A DNA stretch of 62,610 nucleotides, filler included, from Sphacelaria rigidula (Eukaryota): NCBI GenBank assembly GCA_964200075.2. It is 7 parts of 7 records of this genome, joined end to end, with 100 filler letters (N's around TTAATTAATTAA, not from the genome) between each part and the next. Parts side by side here need not be neighbours in the genome. Positions count along the whole stretch, not along the records: positions 17,921 to 26,779 come from CAXNAA020009918.1; 6 more parts are not named here. One strand, given 5' to 3'. The notes under the pieces are model-generated. The model saw only the letters and a list, made by a program, of their open reading frames with translations. It did no database searches and was not told the DNA's origin. Shown here in pieces: positions 20,615-23,600 of this stretch (positions within the stretch are counted from its first letter, which is position 1; each line of letters begins with the position of its first letter). A program made the translations under genes and the position numbers.

Positions 20615-23600
20615 GCTATGCCGTGCCAAGCGCGTGTTGGATGTTGGCACGTTCACCGGATACAGCGCTATTGCTTTTGCCGAAGCGCTGCCCGAGGACG
20701 GGGTGGTTGTCACTCTCGAGGTAGGTCACGTTCACAATAGCCACGTCGACCGCACCACATCCCTCCCGCTCGCTCTGTGAAGTTGGGCGGCGTTGGTCCA
20801 GGCTTGTTATACGATGGGAGGCAACAAGCCGTGAAGCCTTGGAGCTGTCCCTTTCAGCGATTGTTCCGCTTATTTTCCCCTGGATAAGTGCATATTTTGA
20901 CTTGTCACTGCTGGATTACGCTTCGTAGCGGATTTGGTCCGTTGAAGTTCGACAGTCGAAGTTATCCTGTCCCGACCACCGCCCAAATGGGGATGGTTAT
21001 GTCGGGGTAAGCTAACCGCAACCATGACACAAACCAACGCGTAGGAGAGAGTGCCATGACCTTTAGACTCGTCTCGTGTTTTGTGTCAGTGGTGGTGCAA
21101 CGCACAGTCTAGGCAGTGGGTCATGCAAACAGTGTTGACCTCAAGGCTCAATCCTGCACCTACGGAGTTTTGCCCTGTACCGAGAGTCAAATTAAACCCC
21201 GCAGCTGCAGAGCTTTGCCCTGTACTGAGGCCCAAACTAAATCCCGCAGCGGCAGAGTTTTCCCGGAGTTGAGGAATTGTCACGGAAAGCACGTGGATGG
21301 ATATGAGACACATGTGGTCGAGTATCAGATTCGGCGGATGGGAGCTAGAGCCCGACGCGGGCTAGCGAGGCTGCAGCCTCCCCGAGAGACGAAAGTGTGA
21401 GGCAGGTACCGTGACCGACGCCCCCCCCCAAAAAGGTACAGAACTGAAACTCGCGCGGAAATAAGGAGGCGAAGCAGACACACAAGGCGGACAGAACAAA
21501 GAGAAGGGCGTGTGAAAATATATGAGGATATAGCTAGGTCGCGAAAAGGGGAGCTCGAACTGGCGACCTACAACGTCGGTGCTTGTCCCTCACGAGAAAA
21601 AACGGAGCTGCCCATGCTGAGGTGGCTCTGTGAAGGTGTCAAGCGGTGGGATGTGGCATTATCGAAGTGCAGGAGACAAGAAGGCCGGGGCGAACTGAGT
21701 TCGTCGGCGCCGGGTAGTGTATCTTCTGCTGCGGGGCGGAGGGAGGCAAGGGAAGGACTGGACAACGTTGGATTGGGTTGGCGGTCAAGGGGTCGATCAT
21801 CAAAAACGCGACGTCGACTCAGGCACTCATCAGCGAACGCCCCCTGTTGATGGCTTTCAACCTCGCCGGCGAATGAGATGCTTGTACGTTTGTAGTTCTC
21901 GATGCACTTATAGGCACGTCAAAGTCAAACTCCACCTGTTTATTTGAATGGACGCTAACGCTAGGACTGGGGTACGAATAGGCAAGGGGTAGTGTCAAAT
22001 AGTGGGCACATACGGCCGGGATTACCAAACCCACGACGGAAACCGTACCTCTTCACTACAACTTGCACGTGACAACAGGCTTGCCCCGGTCAACACGGTT
22101 TTTTCCACCCCCAAGGGAAGCACATAGCGAACGTCCAATGGTATTGCGAATCGTCCCGCGGACAAAAAACGCATCGGCTGCATCCTCACACCGCAAGATG
22201 AAATGAGGCTTGTCCGCAATGTCACCGTCCACCTTCAACGACCCAACTCGCCGAACTCTGACCACATACAGGAGACCTTGGTATGCGCCTCAGTGCGGCT
22301 CCTTGGTCACTTCGCACACAAGAGACCTAGGCGAATCCCATTCGGGCGCAAACCGATCGACAGGGGGGGCAATAACATCTGACACCGATAGACGTGAGCA
22401 GCTCACCCAGGTCATCATTAGCGAGCTCAAACAGAGTATACCTGGCGATGCAGTTAGTTCACTGGCTGCGAACTTTGCCGACGTACTCCTGAGGGCCGCT
22501 GAAAAGGTGGTATCCCGTATGACCCGAGAGCCACGTACACCGGGGTGGTTTGAGCATGCTGTTATCCGGACGGAGTTCGAACACGCCTAGAATGAAAGGG
22601 AGCGGGCGAAGTCGACGGTGCGACTTGGAGTATCGAGAGATACATCCGCATGGCGCACATTGCAGCGTGCCGGAAATTGGAAGAGGTCATTCACGTTGGG
22701 CTGAACAGGTACCTGGATGTGTATGCTAGAGACTTGGAGGAGTGTATTCGAGTTGGAGACATGAGAGGACGGTGCAGACATCTGAGAGGAGGGTGGAGAC
22801 TGTCGGGACGACGACTAGAGTGCGACCAGTGCATCCGAGACGAAGACAGGAATATACTGCGAGACGAAAGCTTAGTCAGAGAGATGCGAACGGTTCTCCT
22901 CGACATTACTGAACCCCACATCGGCTACCATCGACCGAGCCCCATGAGCGAGCGCATTGCGCAACGACCGATTGCGCTGTGTCTGGGAGGCTCGCCACGC
23001 ACAAGTGAAACGGAGGAGCCTCGTAGAGCTACAGTATGTCGAACGACAAAGCGATGGGTCCGGATGGTCAACCTGCTGAACTCATGACGTTTAGCCTGAG
23101 CGGGCAGGCTACGGAGATTCTGTACCACTTCCACAGCATCACCACTCCGGTCTGGACGTCCGGTGAGGCGCCGCAAAAGCGGATATCAAAGTGCTGCACT
23201 AGAAGGATAAGACCGAGCGTAGTAACTACAGGGGCAATTCACTCGTCGCACATGCGGCTAAAGTTATCCTTAAAATCGCACTGGGGGGATAACCTCCAGG
23301 AGAGCCTACGTGTACCGAGGGCTCTCCCACGCAAAGGAGCATGACGGAAATGGTTCGTCTACGGTGTAGCGGTTGACGACGCACACGAACGGGTCACTGC
23401 GGCAAAGAACATGGGGAAATGACATCTCGTTGTCGAGAATGGGGTGGACAGTTGGAGGACTGAGGACACGCGGCGACGCGAAGACAAACGAGAAACGGAC
23501 GGCCGCCTATAACGAGAGGCTACTGCGTCGAGAGTCGCCAATCGGACAACTGCCCTTGCTAGCACAACAGACAACAAGAGCAACAGGCCGCGAGGAATCC

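Follow-up and report, generated by a model that had tools for sequence, protein, structure and literature searches.

A PAM2-type motif at the N-terminus of a brown-alga LINE open reading frame and its possible docking on poly(A)-binding protein

A 62,610-nt stretch of Sphacelaria rigidula DNA (assembly GCA_964200075.2; seven parts joined by filler letters; hereafter the window) carries two decayed copies of a long interspersed nuclear element (LINE), one on each strand. At the 5' end of the plus-strand copy, which lies in record CAXNAA020009918.1, a 49-codon frame runs from ATG 21123 to TGA 21270-21272 (+). It holds three 45-bp units, each encoding one peptide of the PAM2 type, the class of short motif that poly(A)-binding protein (PABP) binds through its MLLE domain. 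An initial annotation had described this array as a tandem triplet of PAM2-like motifs upstream of the endonuclease of an RTE-like retrotransposon; the three units and their peptides are confirmed by the sequence itself, by repeat search and by a score of six out of seven motif positions. Comparison with homologous sequences indicates that the motif is part of the element, that it is in frame with the apurinic/apyrimidinic endonuclease (APE) in relatives, and that it is kept by selection across lineages.

The units were scored at the seven positions that define PAM2 in PMC2854688: a hydrophobic residue at position 3 (usually Leu; Leu, Pro or Phe), a polar residue (Asn or Ser) at position 4, then Pro, Val or Thr, an invariant Ala7, a preferred Glu9, an invariant Phe10, which is the most important residue for binding, and usually Pro12. 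All three window units have L-N-P at positions 3-5 as well as Glu9. Ala7 is present in units 2 and 3, with Pro in unit 1; Phe10 is present in units 1 and 3, with Leu in unit 2; and Pro12 is present in units 1 and 2. The single deviation of unit 3 from the seven positions is Arg for Pro12 as framed, with a Pro codon next in the -1 frame. Between the units, Leu, Asn, Pro and Ala are encoded by synonymous codons, as had been pointed out before. Tandem Repeats Finder reports the array at 21150-21261 with a period of 45, 2.5 copies and 79% matches, and a second repeat search found two copies at 76%.

In a six-frame scan of the window the three units are the sole sites that match at six of the seven positions, and the strict PAM2 pattern has no match in any of the six frames. 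Block shuffling of the window (200 shuffles) gave a mean of 0.24 and a maximum of 2 sites at six or more positions; because the three units are copies of one another, they do not count as three independent chance events. The Pfam PAM2 profile (PF07145), named in the initial annotation as a check, stays below its curated cut-off of 20 bits: the 70-residue frame between stops scores 19.2 bits and the 49-residue peptide 15.3 bits. Of 13 N-termini, 7 were matched at E<=10, with a best E-value of 0.0017. The 49-residue peptide had no match in a PDB sequence search at E<=10, and a homologous-protein search with it, confined to longer proteins, gave five candidates, none of which was scored. The presence of PAM2-type units in the window is thus confirmed, with one deviation per unit and a profile score just below threshold.

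The annotation had also stated that the sequence past unit 3 is homologous to the minus-strand copy, in which the string DPAAAECF is retained, and that the motif therefore belongs to the element. Both statements hold. Positions 21243-21895 align with 58639-57983 at 68% identity (BLAST), and the remnant lies at 58642-58619. A search with the endonuclease of the minus copy yielded three proteins, P0001-P0003. P0002 was then used as a phmmer query on 1.84 billion representative proteins, which gave 2310 matches at E<=0.001, of which the best 150 were examined; together with P0001-P0003 and 21 cluster members they make up a set of 174 proteins (38,302 residues). In this set, 24 proteins have a box that agrees with PAM2 at five or more of the seven positions, and in 21 it agrees at six or more. 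Residue shuffles of the same set gave mean numbers of matches of 2.57 and 0.07, respectively. All 25 boxes sit at one homologous N-terminal site, mostly at residues 3-14 from the first Met, and no PAM2-type box was found outside this site in the 174 proteins. The box lies further in where the predicted open reading frame (ORF) extends upstream (P0048, P0066, P0167 and a few cluster members); since the Met of the MGFK start is internal in P0048 and P0066, with the frame open upstream, it corresponds to a real ATG.

P0002 begins with MGFKLNPDAVEFFPVS and continues in the same frame into the endonuclease. Its type is the commonest lineage and matches all seven PAM2 positions, Glu9 included. Motif and APE start share one ORF in nine proteins (P0002, P0004, P0043, P0124, P0132, P0142, P0167, P0173 and P0174), one of which, P0142, is a Sphacelaria rigidula protein according to its source. 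The number of units is one in the P0002 type, P0142, P0132 and P0124, and two in P0043, the protein closest to the plus copy of the window. P0043 starts with MLTALNSRLDP, and its N-terminal Met aligns with the window ATG, which identifies ATG 21123 as the start codon of the family. A homologous-protein search with residues 1-120 of P0043 returned only P0043 itself. Across the boxes of the relatives, L-N-P occupies positions 3-5 in 22 of 25, P0043 having Asp or Val at position 4; position 7 deviates in P0132 (Val) and P0065 (Asp); position 10 is Phe in 17 of 25 and Trp in one (P0124), whereas the P0027 group has Leu, P0142 has His and P0168 has Val; and Pro12 is present in all 25.

Further features of these N-termini deserve mention. 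P0124 begins with MGLNPNAPAWTP, whose box (LNPNAPAWTP) resembles the PAM2w of vertebrate LARP4 in having Trp as its tenth PAM2 residue. The P0141 lineage (P0141 and P0158-P0162), about 34% identical to P0002, begins with MVVTSEHALPHLAEG and reaches the endonuclease without a PAM2-type box, so part of the wider family either lost the motif or never acquired it. The MSKQQ starts of P0001, P0013, P0069 and others appear to be gene calls inside copies broken further upstream, with the Met probably an alternative start called at the position of Val31, and would then give no evidence for a motif-less form. An N-myristoylation signal was considered for the lineages that begin with Met-Gly and was rejected on the consensus for such signals, and because the window copy, P0043 and P0132 have no Met-Gly start.

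Selection on the peptide was assessed between units and between lineages. In the motif frame, dN/dS between the window units is 0.13, 0.10 and 0.37, values that are noisy at 11 codons each; in the -1 frame it exceeds 1.6, and in the third frame units 2 and 3 are interrupted by stops. The cross-lineage comparison is the stronger evidence. The motif-bearing relatives span at least five lineages. In the five represented by P0002 and by P0043, P0142, P0132 and P0124 (45%, 49%, 43% and 39% identical to P0002, respectively), Leu3, Pro5 and Pro12 are present in all five, and Asn4, Ala7 and an aromatic residue (Phe or Trp) at position 10 in four each. Mean pairwise identity among the five reaches 0.50 in the box, against 0.26 for the linker of 100 residues that follows and 0.34 for the first 100 APE residues, the last value being depressed because P0142 is truncated and gaps were scored as mismatches. 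The box is the best-conserved stretch of the pre-APE region across lineages. These data bear out the earlier suggestion that selection acts on the peptide, and the array very probably represents an N-terminal motif that is translated and under selection.

Other copies in the same genome provide supporting evidence only. Logan contigs of four runs were compared with 21000-21900 at 80% likeness; their depth does not give a copy count. Many contigs from other copies cover 21076-21220, and several then skip to 21262-21279, which means that those copies have fewer units than the window copy. Reading frames across such junctions were computed arithmetically, counting forward from ATG 21123 and back from the linker codon at 21278. 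Five junctions in run X1 have readable letters; four are in frame with codon 21278 and one is out of frame, and the inserted letters are free of stops in this phase. A loose end of run X6 treated likewise is in frame as well. Of the differences with the best support, those at 21128, 21135 and 21143, where the majority departs from the window copy, leave the peptide of the motif frame unchanged, and the majority change at 21159 (G, 0.80 of depth in run X1) converts the Pro of unit 1 to the canonical Ala7, so that most other copies have Ala at this position. Another change, at 21181, replaces Pro with Leu. Most other copies carry an A at 21070, which creates an in-frame TAG (21069-21071) upstream of the ATG.

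An alternative is that the 45-bp array is a neutral minisatellite or is made up of monomers of the promoter or 5' untranslated region (UTR), its peptide reading being accidental. Tandem 5' monomers are known in other LINEs, such as mouse L1; unit number varies from one to three among the copies and relatives; and a single match at six positions in 62 kb is not rare by itself, at the shuffle mean of 0.24. Yet the Met is conserved behind an upstream stop in other copies, the ORF runs unbroken into the APE in nine relatives, the synonymous bias is limited to the motif frame, the box is better conserved across lineages than anything else before the APE, and in 38,302 residues the motif is confined to this one site. 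We regard an accidental reading as highly improbable. The same variation in unit number means that the triplet is not a constant of the family, as the initial annotation had implied: relatives have one or two units, and the P0141 group has none. That interpretation was right in kind, in that a PAM2-type motif lies at the N-terminus of a LINE ORF, and overstated with regard to the triplet; it is partly supported.

The protein context was examined in P0002, in which motif and endonuclease share one frame. An AlphaFold2 model based on an alignment of 50 sequences has a mean pLDDT of 70.4. Residues 1-59 score below 50, and a long basic helix (63-110) and a confident endonuclease fold (113-364) follow. 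The motif thus lies in a predicted disordered tail of P0002, as distinct from the decayed ORF of the window, which is the context expected of a short linear docking motif. The helix comprises 48 strongly basic residues at a pLDDT of about 64-89, and its window equivalent is at about 21440-21554 (+); placed between tail and endonuclease, it is a candidate RNA-binding or oligomerisation element. A complex prediction for the 49 window residues with a stand-in MLLE domain, taken from a metagenome PABP locus (L036; four RRMs and an MLLE by Pfam) and not from the host, gave a score of 0.17 against a mark of 0.34, which speaks neither for nor against binding. A search of the ESM Atlas with P0002 residues 1-60 gave no usable match.

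As judged from its residues, the motif probably binds the MLLE domain of PABP. The main competing view is that it is translated and selected but engages another partner, for instance a different adaptor, or serves as a localisation signal, a degron or an RNA contact acting with the basic helix, its PAM2 likeness being convergent or partial. That none of the Pfam PAM2 scores exceeds the cut-off fits such a view, as do boxes in which residues described as invariant in PMC2854688 are broken (His10 in P0142, Val7 in P0132, Leu10 in window unit 2 and P0027), and the PAM2w of LARP4A contributes to RNA binding as well (PMC6486636). On the other hand, the P0002 type matches at all seven positions, and the positions conserved between lineages are exactly those that contact MLLE; the imperfect versions come from decayed copies, and the predicted disorder suits a docking motif. 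A partner other than MLLE therefore seems rather unlikely, though well short of negligible.

On balance, we favour by a modest degree the explanation that the plus copy is a dead copy of a LINE whose functional ORF starts with PAM2 motifs that dock on PABP. Functional copies would encode a single ORF made up of the initiator Met, one to three PAM2-type motifs in a disordered tail, a basic helical linker, the APE and a reverse transcriptase (RT). The motif would be the first part of the protein to emerge from the ribosome and so would be able to dock on the MLLE domain of PABP bound to the poly(A) tail of the very mRNA under translation. The nascent APE-RT protein would thereby be tethered in cis, near the 3' end that is to be reverse transcribed, and additional units could add avidity because PABP molecules line up on one tail. 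A possible second effect would be the displacement of deadenylase adaptors, which would stabilise the mRNA. The transcript would need to have a poly(A) tail added, and priming would not take place on it. A role of the motif in cis preference or in the assembly of the ribonucleoprotein particle (RNP), as proposed for human L1, seems to us somewhat less likely than not. The broader proposition, that brown-alga RTE-type LINEs independently evolved co-translational PABP capture through an N-terminal PAM2-MLLE contact, with the motif multiplied to two or three units in some subfamilies, and so achieve cis preference, has in our estimate a somewhat less than even chance of being correct.

Several observations weigh against docking on PABP as the function of this ORF. 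Every window unit is off at one defining PAM2 position, and imperfect boxes recur in P0142 (His10), P0132 (Val7) and both units of P0043 (Asp or Val at position 4); Pfam PAM2 never attains its gathering score of 20, with 19.2 bits at best and 15 bits for P0002. The homologous site is covered and the motif missing in P0098, P0141, P0158, P0159, P0161 and P0162, and P0160 has the same N-terminus as the P0141 group; the motif is thus dispensable for at least one lineage. All motif-bearing relatives are fragments of at most 473 residues, and none of the 174 proteins joins motif, APE and RT in one ORF. Full-length relatives are limited to P0099, P0135 and P0157 (24-34% identity), all without the motif. 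Because a pentanucleotide array, and not poly(A), forms the end of the DNA copy, L1-like priming on a poly(A) tail is not expected.

The remaining points concern the reading frame. The two window copies both show an offset of 1 nt between the motif frame and the linker/APE frame; from the GAG of the last unit to the unit end there are 20 nt, where the in-frame relatives require 21. The minus copy otherwise holds one frame for about 700 nt downstream, and two independent losses of 1 nt at one place would be an uncomfortable coincidence. The frame of the units relative to the APE, which the initial annotation had named as a check, differs between copies: nine relatives and four of the five readable junctions of other genomic copies are in frame, and both window copies are not. 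Because the other copies and the relatives are in frame, we read the offset as decay.

The offset could instead be original, the units forming a separate 49-codon upstream ORF, +1 to the APE ORF, that encodes an ORF1-like or upstream peptide, with the fused relatives being secondary. Descriptions exist of RTE elements in which a very short first ORF overlaps the second one. The two window copies, 68% identical to each other, share the same 1-nt offset, and in the minus copy an ATG in the APE frame (58613-58611) stands directly behind the worn PAM2 remnant. This ATG may be there by chance or may serve as start codon in a subfamily that has lost the motif. However, motif and APE share one frame in nine relatives from five lineages, as they do at four of the five readable junctions, and the plus copy, with many more shifts and stops, is simply decayed. 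A canonical slippery heptamer was not seen by eye at the junction. Taken together, these points make a separate upstream ORF improbable as the general arrangement; a subfamily may nevertheless have the units as a separate short upstream ORF, or have no units and a downstream start. A programmed -1 frameshift at the junction of unit 3 and linker was likewise considered and set aside, in the absence of an X XXY YYZ heptamer on inspection by eye and with relatives that are simply in frame.

The organisation of both window copies is given in Table 1. The plus copy is a dead pseudogene. In tblastn searches with relatives, its motif, linker and APE body (from about 21590) fall in three different frames, the APE body being one further frame over from the linker and containing more stops. 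Most of its RT is gone, and the self-BLAST alignment skips from 23281 to the C-terminal part of the minus copy. Three decayed ORFs of the window copies, taken from the post-APE region and the RT/C-terminal region, were not assigned to any family by Pfam. The true 5' end of the plus copy lies somewhere in about 20780-21000; the exact site was not found.

Table 1. Features of the two LINE copies in the window (coordinates along the whole stretch)
Feature	Position	Strand	Basis and remarks
Part of the 5' UTR	21000..21122	+	Contigs of other copies on 21076-21220, some on 21000-21180
Start codon of the element's ORF	21123..21125	+	First ATG downstream of the in-frame stop carried by other copies
Unit 1, PAM2-type box	21141..21185	+	6/7 positions, Pro at position 7
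Unit 2, PAM2-type box	21186..21230	+	6/7 positions, Leu at position 10; tblastn places P0002 residues 4-17 here
Unit 3, PAM2-type box	21231..21274	+	6/7 positions; 44 nt, 1 nt shorter than the other units; motif frame stops at TGA 21270-21272
Basic linker between motifs and APE	21260..21554	+	Frame -1 to the motif frame; broken by TGA 21398-21400; tblastn of P0002 residues 13-189 covers 21260-21775
APE remnant with frame shifts and stops	21555..22364	+	tblastn of P0001 and P0002; Pfam Exo_endo_phos in P0001-P0003
Post-APE linker and first part of RT, decayed	22369..23344	+	tblastn of P0001 residues 370-511; ORF 23027..23344
C-terminal ORF remnant	23295..23645	+	Stop 23643-23645; BLAST to 55610-55432 of the minus copy
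3' end: pentanucleotide (GATTC/GATTT) array, then 22-nt box; no A-run	23673..23736	+	Tandem Repeats Finder: period 5, 9 copies
Second, independent decayed LINE copy	55240..58642	-	PAM2 remnant DPAAAECF 58642-58619; APE from ~58320; RT ~57420-56798

Further observations concern the body and the surroundings of the plus copy. Many contigs of other copies start matching only at 21584 or at 21722, and their loose ends agree with one another; this points to local deletions or rearrangements within the APE start of the plus copy and fits a gap of five residues in the tblastn alignment. About 45 residues past the PAM2 box, the linker contains another conserved box, at 21359-21421 (+), equivalent to P0002 residues ~49-68. 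In the P0002 type it reads G-x-LNP-x-x-E-x-K-Q-G-x-Y-x-D-R, with similar versions in P0011, P0019, P0132 and P0142; it starts in a PAM2-like manner (L-N-P) but has neither Ala7 nor Phe10, and the window version is decayed and contains the TGA at 21398-21400. A 22-nt box occurs at 23715-23736 (+), 24878-24899 (-) and 58952-58973 (+) with up to three mismatches, and was not found in any of 100 shuffles. It follows short GATT-type arrays at 23715 and 58952 (arrays 23673-23718 and 58931-58954) and probably represents a 3' terminus common to this LINE family or to a non-autonomous element that depends on it. About 400 nt upstream of the LINE start codon, an O-methyltransferase exon lies at 20568-20727 (+) (Pfam Methyltransf_3, E=6e-15), which places the LINE copy beside or inside a host gene. 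Elsewhere the window has tandem repeats at 11205-11441 (81 bp x 2.6) and at 46233-46502 (+) (147 bp x 1.8, 91% matches). Six pairs of 44-N blocks at a regular spacing of about 8,958 nt (8861-8960, 17821-17920, 26780-26879, 35738-35837, 44696-44795 and 53654-53753) resemble masking more than gaps in the assembly.

From its sequence, the element is plausibly a brown-alga APE-RT LINE of the RTE or RTE-X type, both labels being equally possible. APE and RT remnants follow in the same order in both window copies, and the distant full-length relatives P0099 and P0135 have Pfam Exo_endo_phos and RVT_1 domains. RTE and RTE-X elements carry a short tandem repeat at the 3' end in place of a poly(A) tract. 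The plus copy, the one copy in which this end was seen, matches that trait: its pentanucleotide array (23673-23718) begins 27 nt past the ORF stop and is not accompanied by an A-run. The Ectocarpus genome has three RTE and seven RTE-X LINE families, which make up its abundant LINE clades (PMC12477816). They are likewise brown-alga LINEs with an endonuclease and an RT; the element described here is a candidate member of either clade. The terms 'PAM2' and 'PABP' do not occur in the main text of that paper, whose supplementary family notes may describe the N-terminus.

How a LINE protein finds the RNA that encodes it, the phenomenon called cis preference, is a long-standing question. For human L1, a direct contact between ORF2p and PABPC1 was proposed as the answer in 2025 (PMC7617806). 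If the docking proposed here is real, the brown-alga motif would be an MLLE-directed counterpart of the contact between the PIE of L1 and RRM1 of PABP, within a LINE clade that has no poly(A) at the end of its DNA copies. In that case PABP capture would be convergent and would reflect a general need of LINE replication in place of a peculiarity of L1; its appearance in a second LINE clade, in distant eukaryotes and by way of a different, very well understood motif, would argue for a recurrent solution and would open the idea to tests with simple tools. Retrotransposons would join viruses and cellular regulators as users of PAM2. A full-text literature search for PAM2, MLLE or a PABP motif together with transposons found, as judged by abstracts and supplements excepted, no report of a PAM2 in a transposon protein. 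The annotation of brown-alga transposable elements gains a defined start codon and an N-terminal feature. Should binding fail, a conserved N-terminal motif of an abundant transposon family would still stand.

Three known systems invite comparison. The cellular PAM2 ligands Paip2, ataxin-2, eRF3, Tob and PAN3, as described in PMC2854688, have the same 12-residue layout, which N-termini of the P0002 type match at all seven positions. One of them, eRF3, contains two PAM2 motifs in a single protein; these overlap, whereas the LINE has one to three tandem units of 15 residues. In contrast to the cellular ligands, the carrier is a retrotransposon replicase ORF, the motif starts at residue 3-5, the Pfam score is below the cut-off, and the motif is known from sequence. 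The PAM2w of LARP4A and LARP4B is also N-terminal and has Trp at position 10, yet still binds MLLE (PMC6486636). The P0124 box is likewise N-terminal and has Trp10; LARP4 is a cellular La-related protein, and Trp10 is found in only one lineage of the LINE.

The closest parallel in function is human L1. Knock-down of PABPC1 reduces L1 retrotransposition (reviewed in PMC4782638), and both retrotransposition and co-localisation with PABPC require the PIE of ORF2p, for which binding to RRM1 of PABPC1 is predicted (Ghanim et al., 2025; PMC7617806). PIE docking was proposed to be co-translational, setting cis preference and helping RNP formation (PMC7617806); the main text of that paper mentions neither 'PAM2' nor 'MLLE'. 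Both systems have a LINE replicase that carries its own short PABP-docking element, putative in the brown-alga element, in the part that is translated first. They differ in position and in target: PIE follows the endonuclease (ORF2p residues 272-297) and contacts RRM1, whereas the motif described here precedes the endonuclease and is of the MLLE-binding type. They also differ in the carrier, since L1 copies end in poly(A) and the RTE/RTE-X-type element ends in a pentanucleotide array. By this comparison, the brown-alga motif would be a functional analogue of PIE and not a member of PIE-type docking.

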